A model generated the notes under the pieces. It did not search any database. It was not told where the DNA came from and was given only the letters and a program-made list of their open reading frames with translations. Below, one piece after another: positions 3,601-39,134 of a DNA stretch of 64,000 nucleotides (within the stretch, counting starts at the first letter, position 1; every line of letters starts with the position of its first letter). The stretch covers positions 2,195 through 66,194 of the forward strand of contig JBEKVC010000001.1 in assembly GCA_049514395.1 (NCBI GenBank). The letters run 5' to 3'. Position numbers and translations under genes: made by a program. Source of the DNA: Terriglobia bacterium (lineage in GTDB: Bacteria; Acidobacteriota; Terriglobia; UBA7540).

Positions 3601-4097
3601 GCCGCCACCACGCCCGGCAGGGTCTGCTGGAGCTGAACCCAATTTCGGCCATTCAGCGGTAAGTCCACGATCTGCGTTCCGGTCAGGGTCGCTCCCAGTT
3701 GCATGCTGGTCTTTTCAACTTGCATGGGGGTAGCTTCGACCGTCACCACCTGGGTGATTGCACCGAGCTCCATCGTGACGTTCAAGACATAAATCTGATT
3801 CAATGCCACAGGGATGTCGTTCACCTCGGCGGTTTTGAATCCCGACCGCGAGGCGGTCACTCTGTAAGTCGTCGGTGTGCGAATCTGAAGGAACTCGTAG
3901 CTCCCATCCGCTTTACTGGTGGTTGAGACGGAGATATTGGTGGCCACGTTTGTCGCCCTCAGCTTGACGTCGGGCATGACGGCGCCCGACTGGTCACTCA
4001 CTATACCGCGAATGCTTCCGAGTTCCTGGGCGAAAATCATGAGCGGCATTAAGAGCACTATAAATATAGGTGCGCAGATGCGCAGAATCTTTTGCAT
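690..4097 (-). CDS. TonB-dependent outer-membrane receptor with an N-terminal carboxypeptidase-regulatory-like domain (1135 aa)
   Basis: Signal peptide MQKILRICAPIFIVLLMPLMIFAQE, then GSIRGIVSDQSGAVMPDVKLRATN...DGSYEF (CarboxypepD_reg-like). The long beta-barrel body ends ...RVELRFEFYNLFNHTQF...LAAKFYF. SD GGAGGAAATGA lies upstream of the ATG. Confidence 0.9.
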   Translation of the reverse strand: MQKILRICAPIFIVLLMPLMIFAQELGSIRGIVSDQSGAVMPDVKLRATNVATNISVSTTSKADGSYEFLQIRTPTTYRVTASRSGFKTAEVNDIPVALNQIYVLNVTMELGAITQVVTVEATPMQVEKTSMQLGATLTGTQIVDLPLNGRNWVQLQQTLPGVVAAADARGNYATNGSQPDQNSYLINGIDSNDLPLNTPLVIPSPDAIAEVRMVTNTINPEYGRNSGAIMNAVTKGGANRFHGDGFEFFRDTSLDARNFFQPTSVIFHQNQFGGTIGGPIKKDHTFFFFSYQGTRNRSPQAGGTTTVFTQDQRNGSFPDIAASDVPSPYAMTGEDGTVYPAGTPYSTLFPTGTIPSADFNSLSVSLLNKFVPLPNSGTEYDFNPVVTGVTDQYLTRIDENISSKDALWGSWMWQRNPTTDTLPFTGATLPGFPEVDQRHLGNYSLTWNHTFGGGTLNEARFGYTRFNYGAVLPVNVLNPSSVGFTGITTQNPSGSSWPVIGVTGYFTLGFSTNGPQPRLDQTYQVDDNFTRISGRHTFKMGFDMRRFQVYNPFANVLDGNYTYGGTGVYSTGDPGADFLLGIPDTYGQGGGDIINARGREYYFYFQDQFKIRKNLTLTYGTGWQVDTPTIDIYHSNHAMTAFRPGKQSTIFPNAPEDYLFQGDPGVNATGTTKYGHFGPRIGFAWSPGGAGKWAIRGGYGIYFDRELEEQTLQFLAAPPFSLSSTGAAACSGSPSFANPFADIATGALCPNPFPVPSNPPSNVDFSPYLPMFPYAVDPNTSVPYSQNFNLTVERQLSGNTILSAAYVGALGRKEVILRELNPGLNPSGCAADPNCVANRTYQGFNDPQNFQYYPLTFAGIGNNQTTGMSNYNALQVVFNQHMSHGLSLNAIYTWSHAMDNGSGFENSGFGGGGFGGYGSLRATNPFNQALYNYGPSEYDATHRFVVSYTYLIPVPHFNNWAAKRIVEGWRMSGDTVLQSGFPLDVVDSSFRSLTCWAYTWTACWDVPDLASAPQYANPRSSSFTNTVTRSGLSANSHYLFNPNTFVRAPIGVQGNAGRNPLRGGGLNNFDWAFFKDTRITESTRVELRFEFYNLFNHTQFNPSGVSTNIQSSNFGRILAARDPRLIQLAAKFYF

Positions 4098-6145: not shown

Positions 6146-6239
6146 GCCCGCCGTGGCGGGCGACATCGGTTAGCCCATAGCGTCAGCTATGGGGACGAGG
6201 GACGGCTAAGAAACTGTAAGCCCCGCCAGGGGCGACATC
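6144..6239. repeat. Two REP-like hairpin units upstream of the RAYT gene
   Basis: AAGCCCGCCGTGGCGGGCGACATC (6144-6167) and AAGCCCCGCCAGGGGCGACATC (6218-6239) are separated by the hairpin CCCATAGC-GTCA-GCTATGGG. Same orientation, similar sequence. Confidence 0.6.
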
Positions 6240-6279
6240 AACCGGGTCCCAGGGGAGCGAATGCCACCCATACAGCAGC

Positions 6280-6702
6280 TTGATGATTCACGCCATTTTC
6301 AGCACCAAAGACCGCCGGCCCCTCTTAACGGTTACAATCAGGGAAGAATTGTTTGCCTATATGGGAGGGATCATCGGACGGCTTAAAGGGCATTCAATGC
6401 TTGTAAACGGCCCGAAAGACCATGTTCATTTGTTGTTCGTGCTTCCTGCCGCCCTTTCGCTCTCCGAAATGATGGAGAAGGTGAAAGCCAATTCTTCAAA
6501 GTGGGCGAATGAACGCTGGCCCGCGATCGGATTTGCCTGGCAAATCGGGTATGCCGGCTTCAGCGTGAGCCCGTCGAAAATAGAGGAAGTAAGGAATTAC
6601 ATCCTTAACCAGGAAGCGCATCATCGCAAGCTGACTTACGAAGAAGAGGTTGCTGCCTTGCTCAAAAGGCACGGGGTGGAATTCGACAAGGATTATCTCT
6701 GA
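6280..6702 (+). CDS. REP-associated tyrosine transposase (RAYT) / IS200-like Y1 transposase domain protein (about 140 aa)
   Basis: HAIFSTKDRRPLL N-terminus, HUH motif in DHVHLLF and catalytic-Tyr region VRNYILNQEAHHRK. The start is TTG 6280 or ATG 6283. Flanked by inverted REP-like units. Confidence 0.85.
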   Translation: MMIHAIFSTKDRRPLLTVTIREELFAYMGGIIGRLKGHSMLVNGPKDHVHLLFVLPAALSLSEMMEKVKANSSKWANERWPAIGFAWQIGYAGFSVSPSKIEEVRNYILNQEAHHRKLTYEEEVAALLKRHGVEFDKDYL

Positions 6703-6934: not shown

Positions 6935-9900
6935 TTAGGAACGCCCGTGGGGAGGACCGCCCAATACCTCTCGCACCTTGTGAGCCAGCGCCTCGGGGGA
7001 AAAAGGCTTTTGCAGGAATGCCACAGCGGAATCGAGCCCGCCTTCGTACCAGACCGCGTTGTCCGCGTAACCCGAGATGTAGAGCACTTTGATCTGCGGG
7101 CGCAAGTTAGCGAGACGGCGGGCGAGTTCGCGTCCACTCATCTGCGGCATAACCACGTCAGTCACCAGCAGATCAATCTGCCCCCAGTACTGTTCTGCGA
7201 GGTCAAGCGCGTCTTGACCGCGGCTGGCTTCCATGACCCTATAACCTCTCTCTTTCAAGACATTTCGCACCAGCGCCCGGACTGCGTCTTCATCCTCCAC
7301 GAGCAAGAGCGTCTCTGTCCCTTGTTGGGCCTCGACTAGACTTCGCCCGGGGCCCGACTCATCAACCTCTTCCGCGGTTCGAGGCAAGTAAATCTTGAAG
7401 GTAGTCCCCTTCCCCACTTCGCTGTAGACCCAAATGTATCCCCCGCTCTGCTTGACGATGCCGTAGACCATTGCCAACCCCAGGCCGGTGCCTTTTCCCT
7501 TATCCTTGGTGGTAAAGAATGGGTCAAAAATGCGGGCTTGTGTCTCGGCATCCATCCCGATGCCGGTGTCATTAAACGCCAGCAGAACATAGGGGCCCGG
7601 GGAGAGAGGAAAGTGGGTCTGGGCAGAAGCGCTGTCCATTTCCACGTTCGCCGTCGTGATGGTTAATACGCCGCCGTTGGGCATGGCATCGCGCGCGTTG
7701 ACGGCCAGATTCAGAAGCACCTGTTCGAGTTGCCCCGGATCGGCCTTGACAGGCCACAAGCTCTCCCCCAGATTCGTGACCAAGTCAACATCCTCCCCAA
7801 TTAACCGCTTCAGCATCTTCTCGATATTGGCGACCACGGCGTTTAGACCCAGAACTCGCGGCGCCAACACCTGCTGCCGGCTGAAGGCAAGAAGCTGGCG
7901 CGTCAGGGAGGCGGCCCGGCCCGAGGCATTCCTGATCTCGTTGACATAGCCCCGCAGCGGTTCGATGGTGCCGGGATGCTCGAGCAGAAGTCCGCCGTAA
8001 CCACTGATAATGGTGAGCAGATTGTTGAAGTCGTGCGCCACCCCGCCCGCCAGCCGCCCCACCGCTTCCATTTTCTGCGCCTGCCGAAGCTGCTGCTCCA
8101 GGCGTTTTCGTTCTGTCACCTCCGCTTTGATAGCAATGAAGTGAGTGATCTCCCCGCGCTGGTTCCGCACCGGCGTGATGGTCATCTCCTCAATGTAGAG
8201 ACCCCCGTCGCTGCGGCGGTTGACGATCTCATCCTGCCAGATTTCGCCGCCCAGGATGGTGGTCCAAAGTTTCCTGTAATAAGCCTCGTCTTGCTTTCCA
8301 GACTTGAGAAGGCGCGGGTTTTTCCCGAGGGCTTCTTCGCGGGAGTAACCCGAAACGCGACTGAAGGCGGGATTGACGTACCGGATGGTACCCGTGGCAT
8401 CGGTGATCACGATCCCTTCCGCCGACTGTTCGATGGCGGTCATCAGAAGCATTCTTTCTGCTTCCGCCGCTTTGCGTTCCGTGATGTCAATCAATGTCGC
8501 CTGAACGATCGCCGGCTGTCCCCGCGGCCCTTCCATCAAGCAGGCATTCATCAGAAGCCATACAACGCTCCCGTCCTTGCGGCGAACCGATTCTTCAAAA
8601 TTGGCCAGCGCCTTTCCCTGGCGCAGGGCCCTCGATAGCTGCTCTCGATCTGCCGGATCAGAGAAGAAATCCGAGAGGTTGCGACCGAGAAGCTCCTGGC
8701 GCGAGTCGTAGCCCAGAATCCGAACCAGCGCGTCGTTACAATCCAGGACGGCGCCGTCCAGATCCGCATAGAAGACCCCGGCGAGGTTTCCGGCAAAAAG
8801 CAACCTGTACTTTTCCTCGGAAGCCCGCAACGCCTCCTCGGCCAGCTTCCCCTTGGTGGAGTCAATGGCCACCCCGCGGAGTTGGATGGGGCGTCCCTCC
8901 GCATCCAAAACCACATGGATTGTATCGTGCAGCCAAACCTGGCGACCGTCCGCCGCCAGCACCCTGTATTCAAGACTGTGATCTCGCCCCTCCGCAATCG
9001 CCTGTCGGCACGCGCCCACAGCCTGTTCGCGATCGAGCGGATGGAGATGCTGCTCCCAGAAATCAGCTTGGCTAAGCCACTGCCCGACAGGATAGCCCAG
9101 GATCTGTTCAGCCCGCTGGCTCACAAAAGTGAATTGATGGGTCTTGGCCTCGGCTTCCCAAACGATCGCGTCAATGCTTTGCACCAGTTCTCGCAGGCGG
9201 CGCCCCGAAGCCTCGGCAGCCGTCCGCAGGCGCTCGCTCTCCGTCAGGTCCTCCACGGTCAGCAAAAGGCGACCCTTGCCCTGCCCGTTTGAGATCTGGG
9301 TCAGAGTGAGCCGGGCGGGCCGGGTACCTATTCCCCCTGGCGCGGCTAGATCCACCAGCACATCATGCGGCCCGCTGCTAGGCCCCGTGGCGCCAGTGAT
9401 CCGGCGTGGCGGCCCTTCTGCTTGTATGACTTCGGGCAGAGACCGCCCTATGGCTTCTTCCGGGCGCAGATGGAACGCTTCGAGAAACGTTCGGTTGGCG
9501 GAAAGCACGTTCAGGTCAGAAGAGAGGATCAGTAAACCCACCGGAACATTGTCCACCATCTGCTGCGCAAACGCCTGGATGGCAAGGATTGCCTGCTGGT
9601 GTTCCACCCTCTCTTCCAGGGCGCGAGCCAGCATCTTCCGCCGGTACCCGACCAACACATAGGCGAAAACCAGAACAATTAACGCTCCCACCATCGCCTC
9701 AAGGCGAGCTCTTTGGTAAAAGTCTTGCAGCGCTTCTTGGCGATCAATCTTTCTCACCAGTGTCCAATCAGTCAGCGGGATACGCCGCTCAGCGCTCACG
9801 ACAGGGACGCCACGATAATCCAACATCTCTCCGCTCAAAGGTCTGTCTTCCCACCCAGCCTTGGCTGTTAACGACGAGAGAGAACGGCGCAAGAAAGCTT

Positions 9901-15532: not shown

Positions 15533-15685
15533 AGAGCCTCCCATGACATGACTGTTTATTGCAGTGCAAAGAATACCGTGGAAGCCGCCGAATGTCACCC
15601 CTCCTTTGGAAAATAGAAATTGGAAAATGGGAACTGGAAATTGGAAAACAAGGTTGCCAGTTTCCAGTTTCCAGTTTCTAATTTC

Positions 15686-15779
15686 GGTAGTGGGCCAGTT
15701 TAATGTAGAGGCGGCTTTACGCCGTCCGCCGCGGCGGACGAGGTAAACTCGCCGCTACGCCTCAAATTGACCCACTACC
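15686..15779. mobile_element. 94-bp palindromic mini-element with GGTAGTG...CACTACC termini, flanked by CTAATTTC
   Basis: GGTAGTGGGCCAGTTTAATGTAGAGGCGG...CCGCTACGCCTCAAATTGACCCACTACC with the central perfect palindrome CGTCCGCCGCGGCGGACG. CTAATTTC lies on both sides (15678-15685 and 15780-15787). Confidence 0.45.
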
Positions 15780-15787
15780 CTAATTTC

Positions 15788-16212
15788 GGTAGTGTCCTAA
15801 ATGCGTGTTGCCAGCTTCTATTTTCCAGTTTCCAGTCTCCGAATCGTACTTATTTGCACCTATTTTTCGCTTTGATTGGGGTTCTTGGCACTGAAAAACC
15901 AGTTCGTTTTTGGCTCCTAAAAACGCTAACTCCTTTGCTTTAAATACATTCTTAGGTTCGTTCCCACGATTTAGTATCTTTTTTCGGTTTCCTGCGCATT
16001 TTCTCTGGCGCCCTGCCCCTGTCTGAACCCCTTCCCCTACTCCCCGGCCTGTTTCCCCACTGGACCACTCACATAGGCTACCATAATTCAGGCCGGGTGT
16101 CAAGAGCAAAGTGCGGGCGTCAGGTGTCGGGCGCCAGGGTTACCTGGCAAGGGGTGGGCGCTGGGGGCCAAGGGATGGTTTTGACCCACCAACACACATC
16201 TAGGACACCACC
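15788..16212. mobile_element. 425-bp MITE-like non-autonomous element related to the adjacent IS1-family element
   Basis: Terminal inverted repeats GGTAGTGTCCTAAATGCGTGTTG (15788-15810) and rc GGTGGTGTCCTAGATGTGTGTTG (16190-16212) match 20/23. They resemble the IS termini at 17/23. No credible ORF. CTAATTTC on both sides. Confidence 0.6.
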
Positions 16213-16267
16213 CTAATTTCGGTAGTGCCTGAATTTTGTGTTGGTGCTGAATAGCTTGAACGAATTC

Positions 16268-16846
16268 TTAGCTATCAAGGATAGTTTCGAATTCTTCTAA
16301 GAAGTGAATGTGTTCATCCGTTTTAAGTGGAGCGGCAGAGAAATATTTATTTTCGGAGAATTGAGCGCCTTCCAAGCGCTCGATTCTCAAGGGCAGCGAG
16401 TAAGAGACTCCTTCTGTAACGTCAAATTGGAAGTTTATTGCAGTCGTTTGAAAATCTAAGTGTTGCTTAGCGTGTCCCGAAACTATTTCTGTTAAGCGAG
16501 CGGCAAGCAAGTGCAGATTTGGATTAAGCGCATCCAAACTTCGTTGACTTCGGAAGTTAACCTGGCTTAGATAAAATCTCCTAGTGATTCCATCAGCAGG
16601 CGGTTGGATTCCAGATAGGGTGCAAAACCAATCCGTAATATCTTTCAGAACTCTTTCTGAGTCATCGGTAGATGATCTCGTATCCACGACTAGTCCTCTT
16701 GGATAAACCGTGTAGCTTTCTATGACGATGTTGCCCATTTTCCCAAGAGTGAATACGGCTCCCGTTGAGGGTTGCCGATACTCGTCTATAGTTGTGGGAA
16801 ATTTCTGGAAACCGTACCGTTCAACCATGCCTTTAACGAAATCCAT
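16268..16846 (-). CDS. Hypothetical protein (about 192 aa), third gene of the toxin-antitoxin-like operon
   Basis: The ORF is open to 16930, but ATG 16846 avoids overlap with the upstream gene (stop at 16857). Protein-like composition, no motif I can name. Confidence 0.6.
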   Translation of the reverse strand: MDFVKGMVERYGFQKFPTTIDEYRQPSTGAVFTLGKMGNIVIESYTVYPRGLVVDTRSSTDDSERVLKDITDWFCTLSGIQPPADGITRRFYLSQVNFRSQRSLDALNPNLHLLAARLTEIVSGHAKQHLDFQTTAINFQFDVTEGVSYSLPLRIERLEGAQFSENKYFSAAPLKTDEHIHFLEEFETILDS

Positions 16847-16856
16847 GGTATGGGTC

Positions 16857-17492
16857 TTACCTCGTGGGTCCCACTCGGGGAGATTCGTCAAAGCGGTTAC
16901 TCTGGCGAGCACGACGGCTAAAATCTCCATGGTAAGGAAAACCTCCAGGATTTAAGTTTGTGACCAAAGCGATAAAGGTGAATCGTGCCTCTTCTCCTTG
17001 TCTGGTACTGGCCCGTTCTATCACAGGATTTGGGGCGTCTTCAGTTCTGTCCTGTATTGCGTCCTCCCCCGATATTTTCTTGGCCAAAGCTGTATCAAGC
17101 TGTTCGTCTTCCGTAGATTTGTGGACAGAGGGTTCGTCAAGAGCTCCACGCTCAAGTTCACTTTGAAAACTAGGAACATCAAGCGTACTCAGACCTAGTC
17201 CAGGATCAACCCTTGGCGTGCCGCTGACCCAATCGACGAGTTGACTGAAAGGCACAAATCGAACAACGAGAGCCACGTCAAACACTGCCGCAACTTTCTT
17301 GAGAGTCGTAAGTGTCTGCTTTCCATAATTGGGATTCTCCAGACGATAAACCGCGTTTTGGTTTGACCCGAGTTTGTCAGCCAATTGCTGTTGACTCCAC
17401 TCTTTCTTATCCCTGAGAGCTTGAGTTTGGAACGCAATACCCTTACTTAAATGTGAATCGACAAACCTGATCCTTGCGTCCTTCCCCTTCAT
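16857..17492 (-). CDS. XRE-family HTH protein (HigA-like antitoxin candidate) with a long acidic C-terminal extension
   Basis: IAFQTQALRDKKEWSQQQLADKLGSNQNAVYRLENPNYGKQTLTTLKKVAAVFDVALVVRF is an HTH_3 signature. ATG 17492 lies 4 nt after the stop of the upstream toxin-like gene. The ORF is open to 17594. Confidence 0.75.
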   Translation of the reverse strand: MKGKDARIRFVDSHLSKGIAFQTQALRDKKEWSQQQLADKLGSNQNAVYRLENPNYGKQTLTTLKKVAAVFDVALVVRFVPFSQLVDWVSGTPRVDPGLGLSTLDVPSFQSELERGALDEPSVHKSTEDEQLDTALAKKISGEDAIQDRTEDAPNPVIERASTRQGEEARFTFIALVTNLNPGGFPYHGDFSRRARQSNRFDESPRVGPTR

Positions 17493-17496
17493 CAAT

Positions 17497-17937
17497 CTAC
17501 GAATCAGACCATTCTTGGAACTCGCAGACAGTCGCTTCTCTTCGCTCGATTTGCCTGAGACGTTCTTTTGCGATCCGTTTGCCATCTTTGTCATTCCTCA
17601 CATTCTTGTCATTAGCGTGTAGAAAAGTATATGAATGCTTGAATTCCTTGGGTCCGCGGAATCCATAAATCCGGTATGTGTATGTCTTGATAACTCCGCT
17701 TTCTTCACGCGAGATTTTGCCCGCCCTCAGTTCTGATATTCCACCTTCCCCTTTAAGAGGGTCAAAAGTGGGTTTTCTCCATTTACTCTTCGTCTTGACC
17801 CGCAAGTATTGAAGGAGATCACATATTTCATCTCGCACGTCATCTGGCAGACCATCAAACCAGCCCTGAACTGGACAGCCCTCTTGTTCCGATTTGAAAC
17901 AAAGGAACTTCCATTGCCATTTCGCCTTTGCACTCAT
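17497..17937 (-). CDS. Gp49 / HigB-like (RelE superfamily) toxin candidate
   Basis: The pattern ...LKGEGGISELRAGK...YRIYGFRGP...YTFLHANDKNVRNDKDGKRIAKERL resembles phage Gp49-like / HigB toxins, which pair with XRE antitoxins. Start uncertain: ATG 17937, or TTG 17964 in the ORF track. Confidence 0.65.
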   Translation of the reverse strand: MSAKAKWQWKFLCFKSEQEGCPVQGWFDGLPDDVRDEICDLLQYLRVKTKSKWRKPTFDPLKGEGGISELRAGKISREESGVIKTYTYRIYGFRGPKEFKHSYTFLHANDKNVRNDKDGKRIAKERLRQIERREATVCEFQEWSDS

Positions 17938-17947
17938 AGGATACCAC

Positions 17948-18002
17948 AAAAATGATGTTGTCAAACTTTTTTTAGTTTCCCTATTGACACAACATCATTT
18001 TT
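17948..18002. promoter_or_regulatory. Inverted repeat spanning divergent -35 boxes (candidate operator)
   Basis: AAAAATGATGTTGTCAA (17948-17964) and TTGACACAACATCATTTTT (17984-18002) are reverse complements apart from a 2-nt CA insertion. Each arm contains a TTGACA facing outward. Confidence 0.5.
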
Positions 18003-18012
18003 GATGTATGAT
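17984..18012 (+). promoter_or_regulatory. Near-consensus sigma70-type promoter driving the transposase leader
   Basis: TTGACA (17984-17989), a 17-nt spacer, then TATGAT (18007-18012). The predicted start is around 18019. Confidence 0.55.
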
Positions 18013-18018
18013 GTCTGT

Positions 18019-18286
18019 ATGATGATTAAAACAAAAGGCCAGCGAAACAATCAGGGTTTGACTGAATCGCTGGCCTTGTATCTTACGGGCCTGTGGGACG
18101 GTTCCCGCCTAAGCATGCTGGGTGCCCATAGCAGAGGGTTCAACTCCCTCCAGGTCCAATTTGAAATTAGCCCCACGAATAGCTGTAACTATCCGTGGGG
18201 CACATCCTCAGGCCGAAGCCGAAAGGACGGGGTTTCTAGGCCCTCCGTCATTTTCGCTCTAGGCCCCGGAGAAAGCAAGGGAGAAA
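18019..18286 (+). ncRNA. Candidate structured leader / ncRNA upstream of the IS1 transposase, including a tRNA-like acceptor/T-arm minihelix
   Basis: 11-bp hairpin at 18035-18077. Minihelix at 18087-18158: GGGCCTG pairs with CAGGTCC, with the T-arm GAGGG-TTCAACT-CCCTC. 8-bp hairpin at 18170-18201, a GGC-CGAA-GCC hairpin at 18211-18220 and a 7-bp hairpin at 18226-18249. SD AAGGGAG lies just before ATG 18287. Confidence 0.3.
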
Positions 18287-19237
18287 ATGACTTGCCACAA
18301 CTGCCGGATCGAATGCCGGAAATTTGGGAAGACTCGGAAGGGTCAGCAACGGTATCGTTGCTGCCAATGCTATAAAACGTATTCCGATCCTCGTAACGAG
18401 CACCTGGGCGGCATGTACACTGCCCCCGAGAAAGTGGAACGCGTTATCAATCTCCTGGTCGAGGGTTGCTCTATCCGTTCGATCCAGAGGCTCACTGGGA
18501 TTGACCAGAACACGATCATGAAGATTTTGGCGCTCGCCGGAAATCGCTGCCAGAGACTACTTGAGAGTAAGTGCCGAAACGTGCCTGTGTCCGATGTTCA
18601 ATGCGATGAAATCTGGGGCTTCGTGGGTTGCAAGGAAAAGCGCAATCAAACAGGTAATCCAGACTTTGGAGACGCCTACTGCTTTGTCGCTTTTGAGCGG
18701 GCCACTAAGATGGTGCTGACTTGGCATCTCGGACGAAGAACTGCTAACGACACAGAATATTTTGTGGAGAAGTTGAATGAAGCGACCACCGGAAAATTCC
18801 AAGTGACGACGGACGGATTCGCACCCTATTTCGACGCGATTCACACGTCTGTCGGAACACGGGTTGATTATGCGCAACTCATAAAAGTCTATGCCGCTCC
18901 CACTGACGAAGAACATCGCTATTCACCAGCCAGCGTGGTAGATGCCATTGCAAAGCCACTATGGGGCCAGCCCGACCCCGAGAGGATTTGTACATCACAC
19001 GTCGAGCGACAGAATTTGACGATGCGAATGCAGATTCGTAGGTTAACTCGCCTTACGAACGCGTTCTCGAAAAAGCGGGCTAACCTGTGGGCCGGTCTCG
19101 CCCTGTACTTTGCTTGGTACGATTTCTGCCGGATTCACCGTTCGATTCGCGTTACCCCCGCAATGGAAGCGGGGATCACGGATCACGTTTGGAGGGTGCA
19201 AGAGATGCTCGAATCAGTTTTGGGAGTCAAATCTTAG
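18287..19237 (+). CDS. IS1-family transposase, single-ORF type (316 aa)
   Basis: N-terminal zinc ribbon CHNC...CCQC, HTH SIRSIQRLTGIDQNTIMKIL and DDE blocks DEIWGFVGCKEK, TTDGFAPY and HVERQNLTMRMQIRRLTRLTNAFSKK (IS1 InsB signature). Confidence 0.9.
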   Translation: MTCHNCRIECRKFGKTRKGQQRYRCCQCYKTYSDPRNEHLGGMYTAPEKVERVINLLVEGCSIRSIQRLTGIDQNTIMKILALAGNRCQRLLESKCRNVPVSDVQCDEIWGFVGCKEKRNQTGNPDFGDAYCFVAFERATKMVLTWHLGRRTANDTEYFVEKLNEATTGKFQVTTDGFAPYFDAIHTSVGTRVDYAQLIKVYAAPTDEEHRYSPASVVDAIAKPLWGQPDPERICTSHVERQNLTMRMQIRRLTRLTNAFSKKRANLWAGLALYFAWYDFCRIHRSIRVTPAMEAGITDHVWRVQEMLESVLGVKS

Positions 19238-19255
19238 AAAGGAGGCAAGAACCGC

Positions 19256-19489
19256 ATGGCCTTTTCAGAAGATACAAAGGATGCAGCATGGCGGAGAGCA
19301 GGCGGTAAATGCGAATGCACTCGCAGTGTCTGCTCTCACCATGCTGGTCGCTGCAACGAATCGCTAACCGCTGGGAACTGGCACGCTCATCATAAGACCG
19401 CCGAGATCATCGGCGGAAGCGACAATCTATCTAACTGCGAAGCTCTCTGCATTCGGTGTCACAAGAACACCCGAACGTATGGTGCTTAG
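19256..19489 (+). CDS. Small HNH endonuclease-domain protein (77 aa)
   Basis: SD AAGGAGG upstream. Motif NWHAHHKTAEIIGGSDNLSNCEALCIRCHKNT gives the H-N-H arrangement with flanking Cys pairs. Confidence 0.7.
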   Translation: MAFSEDTKDAAWRRAGGKCECTRSVCSHHAGRCNESLTAGNWHAHHKTAEIIGGSDNLSNCEALCIRCHKNTRTYGA

Positions 19490-19817
19490 CCAAAACTCGC
19501 TTTAGGGCAGAGAAGGCTCTACCAGAGTCCTCTGCCCTAGAGCTTATTTTCCCCATCGCATCACTGCCGTTAAAAACCTCAACGGAAACGGAGTATTCCC
19601 CCACAGAACGTAAAGCTGGCTCAATAATCTCGAACAAAAAATTCCCAACAGTCTGCCATCCGTCAAGCTGGAAATACACGTAGGCTTCACCCGGATCGCC
19701 TTGGCAACTGCCAACCGTCTGAAGGTGAGGCAGAGTATTCAGCAGTTCTACTATCTCGGCCATACGCTCATCGACGTGTGCGTTGACCTTGACCCAAGTT
19801 TGCGGATGACTAGACAC
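19431..19817 (-). CDS. Hypothetical protein (128 aa) inside the IS right arm
   Basis: GTG start with GGAG 7 nt upstream and protein-like composition. Its 3' end overlaps the HNH gene convergently by 59 nt, which lowers confidence. Confidence 0.45.
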   Translation of the reverse strand: MSSHPQTWVKVNAHVDERMAEIVELLNTLPHLQTVGSCQGDPGEAYVYFQLDGWQTVGNFLFEIIEPALRSVGEYSVSVEVFNGSDAMGKISSRAEDSGRAFSALKRVLAKHHTFGCSCDTECRELRS

Positions 19818-19968
19818 CTTACCGCTCCAGAGATTATTGATAGAGCAAGAAAAACTTCACAGAGATCAACACAAATTTCAGGCACCACCCTAATTTCCAG
19901 TTTCTTGACTTGCTTCGCGCGGGTACCTAGAATTGACAGTTTGCATCACTGACAGGCAGGCTGACTGT

Positions 19969-21492
19969 ATGCCGTTCCGCATCTACAACACACTGAGCGG
20001 GCAAATCGAAGAGTTCAAGCCGCTCCACGACAATAAGGTCGGCATGTATACCTGCGGGCCCACTGTTTACGATTTCCCCCACATCGGCAATTACCGGACC
20101 TTCGTGTTCCAGGACATCCTGCGACGCTGGCTGAAGTACCGGGGATACACGCTCCGGCACGTCATGAACCTGACGGATGTGGACGACAACACCATCCGCA
20201 ATTCCCAAGCCGCGGGCGTGTCGTTGCGCGAGTACACAGAGAAATACGTCGAAGCCTTCCAAATGGATCGCCAACTCTTGAGCCTCGAGGATCCTGAAAT
20301 CGTAGTGCGCGCCACGGACTCGATCGCTGACATGGTGAAGGTGATCCAGACGCTGGTTGAAAAAGGTTACGCCTACGCGAGTGAGGGCTCGATCTACTTC
20401 CGGGTGGCCGCATTCAAGAATTATGGCCAACTGTCCAAGATCGACCTTTCGGGCATCCGCGACGGGGCACGGATTGATACGGACAAGTACGACAAGAACG
20501 ACGCCCGCGACTTTGCGCTCTGGAAGGCGCCGAAGGAAGGCGAGCCCTTTTGGGAGACGCCGCTCGGCCCCGGGCGGCCCGGCTGGCACATCGAGTGCTC
20601 GGTGATGTCCATGAAATTCCTGGGCGAGACTTTTGACATCCACTCCGGAGGCGTCGATCTTATCTTCCCCCATCACGAGAACGAGATTGCGCAGAGCGAG
20701 GCGGCCACGGGCAAGCCCTTCGTGCGCTACTGGCTGCACGCCGAGCATCTAATCGTCAACGGCGAGAAGATGTCGAAGTCACTGGGCAATTTCTATACGC
20801 TGCGCGACCTTTTAGCCAAGGGTTACAAGCCCTCGGCGATCCGATACTTGCTGGCCTCTGTCCCTTACCGCCGGCATTTGAACTTCACCTTTGATGGCCT
20901 GCACCAGGCGCAACAATCCATCGACCGGCTCAGGAATTTCCGCTTCCGGCTTACCCAAGAGTCATTCTCTGCGGGGGAGAATGCCGCTTTGCAGGATCGT
21001 GCCCGCGCCGCCTGCCAGGCGTTTGAAGATGCCATGGACGACAACTTGAACACCGCCGAAGCCCTCGGCGCCGTCTTCGCCATGGTGCGGGATGGAAACA
21101 CAGCCATGGACCAGGGCGAATTCCGCACGGGTGATCGCGCTGCCTTCCTGGACACGCTGGAGCGCTGGGACCGCATCTTCTGCGTTCTCGACGACAATGA
21201 CCACGAAAAGCTGGTGAAATTTGGTTTCATCAAATCCCGCGATTCAAGCCTGGGCGCTCTCGTCTCTCCGCCGCCTGCGGACGTCGGACAGCCGGCAATT
21301 GGGAATGGGCACACCGGCGCGGTGGCGATGGAGTCGCTGAGCAACGAGGAAATCGAGAGATGGGTTGCGGAACGTGACGAGGCGCGTCGCAAGGGCAGTT
21401 TTACCCGCGCCGATGAAATTCGCCAGAATCTTCAGAAGGTCGGTGTTATACTAGAGGATAGCAAGCTCGGAACTCGTTGGAAGCGGGAGTAG
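19969..21492 (+). CDS. cysS: Cysteine--tRNA ligase
   Basis: MPFRIYNTLSG start, HIGH-type motif PHIGNYRT and KMSKS motif. The ORF-track TTG at 19933 is more likely part of a TTGACA box. Confidence 0.92.
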   Translation: MPFRIYNTLSGQIEEFKPLHDNKVGMYTCGPTVYDFPHIGNYRTFVFQDILRRWLKYRGYTLRHVMNLTDVDDNTIRNSQAAGVSLREYTEKYVEAFQMDRQLLSLEDPEIVVRATDSIADMVKVIQTLVEKGYAYASEGSIYFRVAAFKNYGQLSKIDLSGIRDGARIDTDKYDKNDARDFALWKAPKEGEPFWETPLGPGRPGWHIECSVMSMKFLGETFDIHSGGVDLIFPHHENEIAQSEAATGKPFVRYWLHAEHLIVNGEKMSKSLGNFYTLRDLLAKGYKPSAIRYLLASVPYRRHLNFTFDGLHQAQQSIDRLRNFRFRLTQESFSAGENAALQDRARAACQAFEDAMDDNLNTAEALGAVFAMVRDGNTAMDQGEFRTGDRAAFLDTLERWDRIFCVLDDNDHEKLVKFGFIKSRDSSLGALVSPPPADVGQPAIGNGHTGAVAMESLSNEEIERWVAERDEARRKGSFTRADEIRQNLQKVGVILEDSKLGTRWKRE

Positions 21493-23681: not shown

Positions 23682-24725
23682 TTGCCTGAACTAAGAAGAG
23701 ACCCCATCACCGGGCGGTGGGTCATCATTTCTACTGACCGAGCCATAAGGCCAACGGATTTCGTCCGGGACAAAGTTCAGATTCGTGGCTCGGGCTTCTG
23801 TCCATTCTGCCCTGGCAACGAAAAGAAAACGCCGCCGGAAATTCATGCTTACCGCAACGGTAGCGCACGGGATACCCCCGGCTGGTCGCTGCGCATTGTG
23901 CCGAACAAGTTCCCGGCCCTGGGTATCGAGGGAACACTCAACCGGCAGGGTGAAGGCCTTTACGACAAAATGAATGGCATCGGAGCGCACGAGGTCATTA
24001 TCGAGACGCCGGAGCACAACCTGACCTTGGCCACCATGCCCACGCGCAAAGTCGAGGACGTGCTTTGGGCTTACCGCGACCGCATTCGGGACCTCAAGAA
24101 AGACCGGCGCTTCAAATACATCCTGATCTTCAAGAACCACGGTGAGGCTGCGGGCGCCTCGCTCGAGCATACCCACTCCCAGCTCATCGCTCTGCCCGTT
24201 GTGCCGAAGCGCGTCCGCGAAGAGGTGGACGGCGCGCGTGAACACTACAACTTCAAAGAGCGCTGCATCTTTTGCGATATCATCCGCCAGGAGATGGAAA
24301 AGAGTGCGCGCCTGATTGCGGATAATCAGGCCTTCGTGGTTCTGGCGCCCTTTGCTCCAAGATTCCCCTTTGAGATATGGATCATCCCCAAGACCCACCA
24401 ATGTGCCTTCGAGGAATCCCAGAAAGCTGAATTCGAGCAACTCGCTCCGATTCTGAAGGATATGCTGTCGCGTCTGGACCGCGTGCTGGAGTGGCCTGCT
24501 TACAACTACATCATTCACACCGCGCCCATCGGGGAATCCACAGAGGATTACTACCACTGGCACCTGGAGATCATGCCAAAACTGACCAAAGTCGCCGGCT
24601 TTGAATGGGGCACGGGCTTCTACATCAATCCCACACCGCCGGAGGAGTCCGCAAAGTTCTTGCGCGAGGCGGCCCAGCCCCCAGAAGCTCCCACGGACGC
24701 ATCGCAGAAGGGCGGGCTGGGGTAG
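23682..24725 (+). CDS. galT: Galactose-1-phosphate uridylyltransferase-like HIT-family nucleotidyltransferase (347 aa)
   Basis: RRDPITGRWVIISTDR, zinc motif CPFCPGNE and the active-site histidine triad variant SLEHTHSQLIA. TTG start. Confidence 0.85.
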   Translation: MPELRRDPITGRWVIISTDRAIRPTDFVRDKVQIRGSGFCPFCPGNEKKTPPEIHAYRNGSARDTPGWSLRIVPNKFPALGIEGTLNRQGEGLYDKMNGIGAHEVIIETPEHNLTLATMPTRKVEDVLWAYRDRIRDLKKDRRFKYILIFKNHGEAAGASLEHTHSQLIALPVVPKRVREEVDGAREHYNFKERCIFCDIIRQEMEKSARLIADNQAFVVLAPFAPRFPFEIWIIPKTHQCAFEESQKAEFEQLAPILKDMLSRLDRVLEWPAYNYIIHTAPIGESTEDYYHWHLEIMPKLTKVAGFEWGTGFYINPTPPEESAKFLREAAQPPEAPTDASQKGGLG

Positions 24726-24828
24726 TGTTTTAATATGCGACGTAGGGCCGGGGCTTGCTTGCCCTAGCCTGGCCGCCCCAAGGGGCGGCCCGACATTCTA
24801 ATTAGGACACTCCCCGGGCTGAACCGGC

Positions 24829-38758: not shown

Positions 38759-39134
38759 CCGCCGCGGCGGGTCAGCTTCGGGCCTTCCTGCCTAGTCCCA
38801 CCGCCTTCGCTGCTCACTGCCTGCTGCCTACGCCCTACCTTTTGTCTTCTCGCTTCTGGCTTCTGGTCGGCAGACCCAGCGGCGCAGCGATAAACCCATC
38901 GCCCCGGTAGTGGCGTAACAGTGTGCACGGTTGAAGGTTCTTTCGCCCCTTCCGGGGCTCACTCCGGTGGGGCGGCCCCAACCCAGGGCTTGCGCCCTGG
39001 GCTAAATTCTACCGCCCCTAACGGGGCTAGGCTTTACTACTGCCTTCTGCTTACTGCCTTCTGCCTTCTACTTTCTGCTTTCTGCTTACTGCTTACTGCC
39101 TTCTACTTTCTGCTTTCTGCCTTCTACTTTCCGC

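Follow-up and report, generated by a model that had tools for sequence, protein, structure and literature searches.

A stretch of 64,000 nucleotides from a Terriglobia bacterium (GTDB lineage Bacteria; Acidobacteriota; Terriglobia; UBA7540; assembly GCA_049514395.1, contig JBEKVC010000001.1, positions 2,195 to 66,194; hereafter the window) contains a 3,669-bp transposon of the IS1 family at 16221-19889, in which the transposase gene is preceded by a highly structured leader. This leader is not at an end of the insertion sequence (IS) but approximately 1.8 kb inside it, in the divergent control region between the cargo genes and the transposase gene. An original prediction, made by a model from the letters of the DNA, had described here a near-consensus promoter, a leader of about 270 nt rich in hairpins, and a 72-nt segment whose ends pair like the acceptor stem of a tRNA; the promoter, all of the hairpins, and the segment are present as described (Table 1). 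Comparison of the segment with its counterparts in related loci shows that it is a conserved, covarying, tRNA-shaped RNA element with an alanine-type acceptor, situated on the transposase strand and downstream of a conserved promoter inside a mobile IS1-family element.

The acceptor stem of the predicted RNA consists of 7 bp (GGGCCTG/CAGGTCC) with a G·U pair at the third position (G3·U70), and the T arm reads GAGGG-TTCAACT-CCCTC. Thus far the RNA is canonical (7-bp acceptor, 5-bp T stem, UUCRANY loop), but its core is not, in that it lacks a canonical D arm, a 5-bp anticodon stem, a U33-containing loop, and a variable region of 4-5 nt. The original prediction had not succeeded in folding the internal 40 nt into canonical D and anticodon arms. 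They do fold, into a small D arm of 4 bp with a tetraloop and an extended anticodon-like arm (18107-18132; 3+5 bp) followed by a variable region of 1 nt, an arrangement that is clear in the relatives and degenerate in the window, where the loop is UGCUGGG rather than UUCUGGG. When the segment was put through standard RNA-finding programs, as had been proposed with the prediction, the answers differed: ARAGORN called 18087-18158 a tRNA-Gln(CTG), whereas the Rfam tRNA model (RF00005) gave 25.2 bits against a gathering score of 29 bits (E = 0.0054 in a 501-nt search), with an alignment covering the acceptor and T arms only. A search of the whole window at the Rfam gathering scores returned no tRNA match for the segment. 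Features of tmRNA (a resume codon or tag frame, pseudoknots) were not found in the element, which has only 40 nt between the 5' strand of the acceptor and the T arm, and ARAGORN made no tmRNA calls in the window or in 80 loci.

To place the element among its relatives we used 80 genome loci and 80 metagenome loci, here given L numbers, from among more than 1,100 transposase matches. (All of the genome loci are from metagenome-assembled genomes (MAGs), nearly all of Acidobacteriota, namely Terriglobia, Bryobacterales, and Blastocatellia; the set of MAG and metagenome contigs includes a few duplicates and some redundancy, and the evidence from it is comparative and computational.) MAFFT alignments of mixed tRNA-like classes are structurally unreliable and were replaced by a covariance model and by fixed-length minihelix strings. 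The covariance model of the window type, which was built from seven copies and for which E-values are rough, found a single copy of the element in the window and copies of the same type, at 84-103 bits, in ten loci altogether (the window, L001, L002, L003, L006, L010, L012, L086, L082, and L139). All ten copies are 72 nt long and are built alike: a single linker base joins the 7-bp acceptor to a D stem of 4 bp capped by a tetraloop, the anticodon helix (3 + 5 bp) comes next, and one further base separates it from the T arm. The 7-nt loop of the anticodon helix, UUCUGGG (anticodon CUG, U33, G37), is identical in nine of the ten copies while the stems around it vary, and its conservation suggests that in intact copies the anticodon arm is of importance as well. 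Overall, 96.3% of cells are paired and five pairs have changed on both sides, including A12-U17 to C-G, U23-A44 to C-G, A29-U37 to G-C, and G49-C63 to A-U. The covariation score exceeded that of all 500 shuffles and of every slid control; note that the shuffles ignore phylogeny whereas the slid-partner controls keep it. Absence of conservation and covariation from other copies had been named at the outset as grounds for abandoning the prediction; instead, the element is kept, with compensatory changes, in nine other loci.

Weaker matches to the model, together with a scan for acceptor plus T arm that covered the transposase strand only, added further elements that share the tRNA-like shape and the non-canonical core and that we refer to, with the window type, as class I (L026, L060, L072, L120, L018, L109, L054, L071a, L059, L114, L087, and L083). 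Among 18 distinct class I sequences, 99.5% of cells in the 12-bp acceptor/T stack are paired, 7 of the 12 pairs show compensatory changes (pair 4-69 is split evenly, nine C-G to nine G-C; at pair 7-66, eleven have G-C and seven A-U), and the covariation score of the minihelix is above that of every shuffle. Fixed within this stack are G1-C72 and G2-C71 (18/18 each), and nearly so G3·U70 and A73 (17/18 each); all four features are present in the window copy. Hou and Schimmel, and Francklyn and Schimmel, are reported to have identified G3·U70, A73, and G2-C71 as the identity set of alanyl-tRNA synthetase (AlaRS). This set works on minihelices whatever the anticodon, and it is common to tmRNA. 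The fixed G3·U70 pair argues that charging matters, and hence that the element is not just a processing signal.

Other features of class I point in the same directions as tRNA-Ala and tmRNA. A classical tRNA-Ala acceptor (GGGGCUA/UAGCUCC-A-CCA) is found in L018 and L072. In L059, L114, and L054 a D loop that contains GG but has no stem precedes a long helix, recalling the tRNA-like domain of tmRNA. Exact matches in IMG/VR to the 3' string of the window type, GGTTCRAYTCCCYCCAGGTCCA, come for the most part from phage tmRNAs and from phage tRNA-Ala(UGC). Of 22 elements, 17 have U immediately before G1 and 6 encode CCA after A73 (L139, which is of the window type, L071a, L072, L026, L018, and L120), which fits an acceptor/T-arm minihelix that could recruit RNase P and the CCA-adding enzyme. 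(Two IMG/VR contigs, L162 at ~6216-6292 and L215 at ~8325-8403, carry RNAs of ~77-79 nt that resemble a lone tRNA-like domain of tmRNA, with GGGCCUG-AAUGGUUUCG..., a capped helix, a T arm, and CAGGUCCA; neither lies near a transposase.)

The leader that surrounds the element is itself strongly folded. Its 288 nt give -110 kcal/mol (z = -3.39), none of 200 dinucleotide shuffles folds as well, and the dense structure described originally is thereby borne out. Mean pairwise identity reaches its maximum within the leader in the tRNA-like segment (0.87) and falls to 0.43-0.46 in the flanking spacers and to 0.31 in the loop of hairpin 1, the stem of which is conserved in relatives. Apart from tRNA and mascRNA, Rfam matches to the leader were at chance level only. 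A mechanical ORF (open reading frame) of 124 aa at 18001-18375 crosses the leader and is open in 11 relatives; its variable columns number 67/59/61 by codon position, versus 78/47/172 in the transposase gene. We rejected the idea that the leader is protein-coding, given that this ORF has neither codon periodicity nor a synonymous excess in any frame, and the original view that the leader contains no credible ORF stands. The leader belongs to what we call type A, which comprises a promoter, a 5' hairpin, an optional tRNA-like element, hairpin 2, small hairpins, and a stem of GUCAUUUUCGCUC with GGGAGAAAAUGAC that sequesters the start site. In an alignment of 19 type-A leaders, the pair of this stem at columns 108-136 is C-G in eight sequences and G-C in another eight, and every one of the 19 has its AUG base-paired.

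The leader promoter is the best promoter-like site within 16100-20000, and an equivalent (TTGACA...TAnnnT) occupies the same place in L001-3, L010, L026, L069, L083, L086, L087, and L120. A 16-bp palindrome occurs at 17943-17958 and again at 17992-18007, the second copy lying inside the spacer of the promoter, and the palindrome is also found in L003 and L006. The palindromes are probably the operator of the divergently encoded helix-turn-helix (HTH) protein, which would control both the tRNA-like RNA and the transposase gene.

Table 1 Features of the transposon and of the leader of its transposase gene (window positions; TSD, target-site duplication; TIR, terminal inverted repeat).
Feature	Position	Strand	Basis or remark
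Left TSD copy CTAATTTC (8 bp)	16213..16220	.	Identical 8-mer at 19890-19897
Left TIR GGTAGTGCCTGAATTTTGTGTTGG (TIR start GGTRGTGCCTGAA)	16221..16244	+	22/30 positions match right end
Passenger orf220, probable start near 16846	16268..16930	-	Without family match; 45 homologues, all annotated hypothetical
Passenger XRE/HTH_3 regulator, 245 aa, HigA/HipB-like antitoxin candidate	16857..17594	-	Profile matches
Passenger Gp49/HigB-like toxin candidate	17497..17937	-	Weak: PF05973, E = 9e-4, below cut-off; homologues in L003, L006, L072
Two operator-like palindromes ACAYCA-N4-TGRTGT	17941..18009	.	21-nt arms, 90% complementary
Sigma-70-type promoter TTGACA-17-TATGAT	17984..18012	+	11/12 consensus positions
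Hairpin 1, 11-bp GGCCAGC-type stem AAGGCCAGCGA/TCGCTGGCCTT	18035..18077	+	Arms 18035-18045/18067-18077; 9 nt before 5' end of tRNA-like RNA
Predicted tRNA-like RNA, 72 nt	18087..18158	+	Acceptor 18087-18093/18151-18157; D arm 18095-18106; T arm 18134-18150; discriminator A 18158
Hairpin 2	18170..18201	+	Also conserved in related leaders without tRNA-like element; four compensatory pairs
Small hairpins GGC-CGAA-GCC (18211-18220) and GACGG...CCGTC (18226-18249)	18211..18249	+	Folding
Stem GTCATTTTCGCTCT (18247-18260) with AGGGAGAAAATGAC (18278-18291), predicted to bury Shine-Dalgarno sequence and transposase AUG	18247..18291	+	Folding, covariation
Transposase, single uninterrupted ORF, 316 aa, intact	18287..19237	+	PF03400, NF033558
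Passenger small HNH endonuclease-like protein, 77 aa	19256..19489	+	Profile matches
Passenger ORF, 128 aa, no assigned function	19431..19817	-	ORF list, family searches
Right TIR, reverse complement GGTGGTGCCTGAAATTTGTGTTGA	19866..19889	-	TIR comparison
Right TSD copy CTAATTTC	19890..19897	.	Perfect 8-bp duplication

The reading that we favour, and to which we assign a probability of roughly 55%, is that the tRNA-like RNA is a cargo RNA that would be co-transcribed with the transposase gene, excised by tRNA-processing enzymes, CCA-tailed, and charged by AlaRS, with the transposase mRNA being poorly translated. According to this scheme, the divergent HTH passenger protein would control the promoter by way of the palindromes in its spacer, RNase P would cut the primary transcript at G18087, and a 3' tRNA-processing nuclease would cut it after A18158. 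The released RNA would receive CCA and would be charged with alanine by AlaRS, alanylation being predicted because the acceptor stem carries the identity set common to tRNA-Ala and tmRNA. What remains of the transposase mRNA would have its 5' end ~11 nt before hairpin 2 and would be poorly translated owing to its sequestered start site. In leaders without a tRNA-like element the transcript seems to start just before hairpin 2, and excision of the RNA from a window-type leader would recreate a similar 5' end. A more general version of the proposal, which we offer only tentatively, is that in IS1-family transposons of Acidobacteriota alanine-chargeable tRNA-like RNAs (mimics of minihelices or of the tmRNA domain, some with Gln or stop anticodons) may be a working part of the element, released from the leader under the control of a cargo repressor and acting on translation. 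Possible actions of the charged RNA include deliberate mistranslation or stop read-through, interference with tmRNA/SmpB rescue, and service as a charged/uncharged sensor through which transposase expression would follow the translational state of the cell.

Several observations weigh against the excised and charged cargo RNA. The window copy does not encode CCA (A-ATT), and the genuine tRNA-Gly and tRNA-Cys of the window do; its Rfam score is below the tRNA threshold; and it is the most deviant copy of its type, with U33 replaced by G and three mismatches in the anticodon helix (the acceptor, D, and T arms are intact), so that any role in decoding has probably been lost from it. Each of the enzymatic steps is, moreover, one that we infer. 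Of the 150 loci for which 450 nt or more upstream of the gene could be examined, 41 have a tRNA or tRNA-like gene in the 600 nt that precede the transposase start and ~73% do not, and L081 and L084, the transposases of which are 86-87% identical to that of the window, have no tRNA-like element; the element must therefore be dispensable for transposition. Furthermore, in leaders of a second type, type B, a promoter with a palindromic operator stands directly before the transposase gene and tRNAs, if any, lie upstream of that promoter (L016, L071, L031, and others), which means that leader processing cannot be the sole reason for the linkage.

Much of this is what would be expected if the element were a hitch-hiking relic, that is, a captured tRNA-Ala-like or tmRNA-like gene in decay that in the window is merely transcribed through: the loss of U33 and the three mismatches, the sub-threshold Rfam score, the missing CCA, and the absence from L081, L084, and most of the family all suit it, and Mukai et al. 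describe an allo-tRNA pseudogene that overlaps a transposon-related ORF (PMC5389517). We nevertheless think a relic unlikely. The segment is the best conserved part of the leader (0.87 against 0.31-0.46), all four helices are kept by compensatory changes in relatives, 17 of 18 minihelices retain G3·U70 even though one U-to-C substitution would give a stronger helix, and the UUCUGGG loop is the same in 9 of 10 window-type copies with the stems varying. Capture of only the 3' fragment of a host tRNA, which the original prediction had named as a way in which it could fail, is excluded, since the segment is complete and lies within the IS. We also rejected an att-type duplication of a host tRNA, the direct repeat 17879-17899/18146-18166 being 81% identical over 21 nt and lying inside a passenger ORF.

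The start-site stem raises a different alternative, in which the leader structure would act purely in cis: its tRNA shape, neither excised nor charged, would offer a binding platform to a protein or the ribosome and in this way adjust the translation of the transposase or the stability of its mRNA. The element does share a transcript with the stem that buries the Shine-Dalgarno sequence and AUG, and its distance to the AUG is fixed in type-A leaders (-200 to -129). We consider this very unlikely, as it would leave unexplained the AlaRS identity set and the encoded CCA of relatives, the tRNAs that lie upstream of the transposase promoter in type B, and the bona fide tRNAs (55-63 bits) that occupy the same position in L007, L022, L016, and L031. 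Comparison of leaders with the genes that they precede indicates that leader modules and transposase genes reassort: L083, with 86% transposase identity, has a different class I element, and L139, with 55%, has the window type. (In type-B leaders such as those of L034, L040, L051, L061, L094, and L098, the transposase promoter is preceded, at about -250 to -150, by a conserved small ORF that ends in an ...IRGPP... motif. Its DNA, …GAGGGCCACCA…, mimics a tRNA 3' end at first sight, and '...GGCCACCA' strings that had been considered as extra CCA ends were discarded as coding sequence of this ORF.)

The tRNA and tRNA-like genes upstream of the transposase gene are not all of class I. ARAGORN made 34 calls in 30 loci, all of them on the transposase strand, and the 3' ends of the genes lie mostly 118-139 nt before the transposase ATG. 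Class II relatives (L007, L022, L031, L016, L034, L071, L028, and L059) score as good tRNAs, at 32.5-62.8 bits, and have odd anticodons, among them ACU, GCU on a tRNA that lacks the long arm, and UGC combined with an acceptor that is not of alanine type. In ten loci (L028, L031, L034, L107, L111, L122, L135, L145, L146, and L159) there are tRNAs with a stop anticodon (UUA in nine, CUA in one) and a long variable arm, situated about -260 to -120 from the transposase ATG and often following a second irregular tRNA, such that the two form a dicistron upstream of the transposase promoter. tRNAs with a UGC anticodon and a non-alanine acceptor (C3-G70, U73) are found in L028 at 3671-3744 (L028a), in L031 at 3659-3730 (L031a), and in L089 at -279 to -204, and are the mirror image of the window type, in which an alanine acceptor is combined with a non-alanine anticodon.

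Such anticodons bring into play the notion that the intact relatives encode an active mistranslating or suppressor tRNA, with alanine identity and a CUG anticodon (so that CAG Gln codons would be read as Ala), with UUA or CUA anticodons in other elements and the window copy being a weakened version; the ribosome would then be where the RNA acts, for instance as a repressor-controlled effector that is toxic or conditional. The 7-nt loop, U33, and purine 37 of nine of the ten copies, the covariation of the stem, the long-arm UUA/CUA tRNAs of the ten related loci, and the fact that anticodon and identity are mismatched in both directions (UGC on the non-alanine acceptors of L028a, L031a, and L089) all speak for it, as do the findings by Mukai et al. 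that acidobacterial G3:U70 allo-tRNAs inserted Ala in E. coli and that some irregular tRNAs were lethal when induced (PMC5389517). The core is non-canonical, however (4-bp D stem with tetraloop, 8-bp anticodon helix, 1-nt variable region), the window copy lacks U33, the use of stop codons by the transposase genes is unlinked to suppressor anticodons, and, again according to Mukai et al., several such tRNAs are charged but unused in translation (PMC5389517), all of which makes us doubtful that decoding is the function. The transposase genes end in TGA, TAG, and TAA 51, 50, and 50 times, respectively, irrespective of the neighbouring anticodon. We discarded the possibility that suppressor tRNAs are needed to read the transposase gene in view of this even usage and of in-frame TAG codons in copies without a suppressor. 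(Single in-frame stops, all TAG, occur in full-length transposase genes at codon 48 of L030/L115, codon 32 of L068, codon 131 of L084, and codon 202 of L083; they could reflect C-to-T pseudogenisation or hint at amber read-through.)

Mukai et al. (2017) reported that Acidobacteria carry allo-tRNAs and polycistrons of irregular tRNAs (PMC5389517; reviewed in PMC7609411). By their account some of the irregular tRNAs have G3:U70 and inserted alanine in E. coli, some have stop anticodons, many are found near toxin-antitoxin genes, and one is the pseudogene mentioned above, which shares sequence with an ORF related to transposons; the authors assign them no native function (PMC5389517). The window element resembles these RNAs in phylum, in linkage to toxin-antitoxin and transposon genes (a HigB-like/HTH pair adjoins it inside the IS), and in that some of them combine G3:U70 with non-alanine or stop anticodons. 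Allo-tRNAs are defined by an 8/4 or 9/3 split of the 12-bp acceptor/T branch (PMC5389517), whereas the window element and all class I relatives have a 7/5 split; the window element is also smaller and has no long variable arm (1 nt). Where allo-tRNAs have a long D stem with a tetraloop and a longer anticodon stem, it has a D arm of 4 bp with a tetraloop and an extended anticodon helix. The window element is thus outside the allo-tRNA class yet part of the same wider phenomenon, and the long-arm UUA/CUA tRNAs of related loci are probably of the same kind as the irregular tRNAs of Mukai et al. The main text of that paper does not tie its tRNAs to any one transposase family, position, or orientation, nor does it describe covariation of an alanine-type minihelix (PMC5389517).

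The transposon that carries the element has the TIRs and TSDs of a mobile unit, and an island of low GC at 16200-19900 coincides with it. The transposase scores 33.3 bits with PF03400 (cut-off 24.1), as a DDE transposase of IS1 type, and 94.7 bits (E = 7e-27) with NCBIfam NF033558 (transpos_IS1), just below the 100-bit cut-off; an IS1/IS1595 Zn domain gives 19.1 bits, below its cut-off of 28. Hallmarks of IS1 in ISfinder are TIRs beginning GGT..TG and a TSD of 8-9 bp, and the window element has both. The insA/insB' pair with -1 frameshifting of classical IS1 was not found in the element, which has one 316-codon ORF plus passenger genes, an arrangement that matches the single-ORF, ISMhu11-like subgroup; a literature search on that name found nothing. 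A look-up of the exact transposase protein found no record, and a blastn search of a plasmid collection gave no match. The GGTAGTG... TIR consensus is present at both ends of ~50 related elements, and same-genome copies of relatives (L073/L074 and L077/L079, with GGTAGTG... ends) indicate that the mobile unit is far larger than the transposase gene. TIR pairs were located in 49 related loci, 45 of which have a perfect 8-bp TSD that differs in sequence from one locus to the next. Comparative data of this sort show the related elements to be IS1-family transposons, 2.0-5.9 kb long, that have moved recently, carry passenger genes, and lack target specificity.

These data bear on the analogy, drawn in the original prediction, with the guide RNAs of IS110 and IS200/IS605. 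There is the general precedent of those families, and an 8-nt stretch of the leader, GAAATTAG at 18163-18170, is the reverse complement of the TSD CTAATTTC. A match of this length is reached in 34 of 200 shuffles, however, and nothing similar was seen in nine other elements. When the 265-nt leaders of 10 elements were compared with their reconstructed target sites and element ends, complementarity was at chance level only. Moreover, the TSDs are unrelated between copies, the transposase is a DDE enzyme of IS1 type with classical TIRs and 8-bp TSDs, and the RNA is missing from most members of the family, being present in about a quarter of it. A guide or bridge RNA for target or donor recognition is, for these reasons, scarcely credible. 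What survives of the original interpretation is a conserved, structured, tRNA-like element with a promoter upstream and an IS1 transposase gene downstream; the prediction had overlooked the combination of G3·U70 and A73, the stem in which the Shine-Dalgarno sequence and AUG are hidden, the boundaries of the IS, the passenger genes, and the work on irregular tRNAs (PMC5389517).

The cargo comprises five passenger genes, namely three that precede the leader on the minus strand (those for the Gp49/HigB-like and HTH_3 proteins, and orf220) and two that lie downstream (the HNH gene and the 128-aa ORF). Among the 160 loci, homologues of the HTH protein and of orf220 are found only where a tRNA or tRNA-like gene is present. 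The genes for the Gp49/HigB-like protein, the long HTH_3 protein, and a conserved protein of 190-220 aa form a three-gene module (16268-17937, minus strand, in the window) that also stands alone in chromosomes without an IS or tRNA-like element (L224, 3009-4678; L228, 3588-4681), once beside a solo Cas1. Searches of Pfam, NCBIfam, PADLOC, and PHROGs gave no match for orf220, and its AlphaFold2 (AF2) model, with a predicted local distance difference test score (pLDDT) of 89, has no fold match in the PDB (best E = 0.39). Without a family or fold match, and with the gene trio also occurring away from the IS and the tRNA-like element, orf220 was set aside as a clue to function. Two TIR-bounded derivatives of the same IS family that resemble miniature inverted-repeat transposable elements (MITEs) lie head-to-tail with the full IS in the region 15678-16220, at 15686-15779 (94 bp) and 15788-16212 (425 bp), and each of the MITE/IS junctions is the same 8-bp CTAATTTC; a further 94-bp MITE-like copy is found at 24720-24814, just upstream of the tRNA-Gly. 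Runs of a GGAAA(T/C)TGGAAA / CCAGTTTCC repeat in inverted orientation (15600-15685 and 15815-15845) flank this insertion hot spot. Elsewhere in the window, an Acido-Lenti-1 RNA of Rfam at 38982-39028 (plus strand; 47.8 bits, gathering score 37) fits an acidobacterial origin.

Among known RNAs, the window element is like tRNA-Ala and the tRNA-like domain of tmRNA in G1-C72, G2-C71, G3·U70, A73, and the UUCRAYU T loop. Unlike tRNA-Ala it has no UGC or GGC alanine anticodon, and unlike tmRNA it is 72 nt long with no mRNA-like domain, tag frame, or pseudoknots. It can also be likened to mascRNA/MEN-beta (Rfam RF01684), a tRNA-like cloverleaf that RNase P and RNase Z cut free from a longer transcript and to which CCA is then added. 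L026 scores 44.9 bits with RF01684 (gathering score 42.5) and the window copy 25.0; the resemblance is one of structural analogy rather than homology, given that mascRNA belongs to a eukaryotic nuclear long non-coding RNA and that the window element is 5' of an mRNA and not at a 3' end. A buried transposase start is the usual means by which an IS keeps transposase translation low, and the stem over the Shine-Dalgarno sequence and AUG recalls both fold-back inhibition in IS10 and the stem-loop in the 5' untranslated region of IS200. Those leaders have no tRNA-like module, however, and in the window the strand that pairs with the Shine-Dalgarno sequence is within the element's own promoter-driven leader. 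In the E. coli thrU-tyrU-glyT-thrT-tufB operon and in mitochondrial tRNA punctuation, tRNAs are released by RNase P and 3' nucleases. As in the window, tRNA-shaped units there lie upstream of a coding region in one transcript, but they are canonical, decoding housekeeping tRNAs whereas the window RNA is non-canonical and in a mobile element. A search of the literature for IS1 together with tRNA-like RNA found no description of an RNA component for IS1-type elements.

What is new here is first the carrier, an IS1-family transposon with TIRs and 8-bp TSDs, together with the fixed position and co-orientation of the tRNA and tRNA-like genes upstream of its transposase gene, and second a 7/5 alanine-type minihelix class with strong covariation, within a promoter-driven leader that sequesters the start site. 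The irregular tRNAs of Acidobacteriota have been unexplained since 2017 and were previously known only to be 'near' toxin-antitoxin and transposon genes. They can now be given a precise setting, inside a defined family of active IS1-type transposons and immediately upstream of the transposase gene, and, in one lineage, a tRNA-like element is placed within the transposase leader itself. The near-invariance of G3·U70 and A73 in a covarying stem makes for a concrete prediction, alanylation by AlaRS. Should the RNA be only a processing signal, it would be a bacterial counterpart of the mascRNA/MALAT1 arrangement. If it is a working, alanine-chargeable RNA, it would represent a type of RNA effector new to DNA transposons, and if it is both charged and active it would link the biology of these transposons to translation quality control or to deliberate mistranslation.

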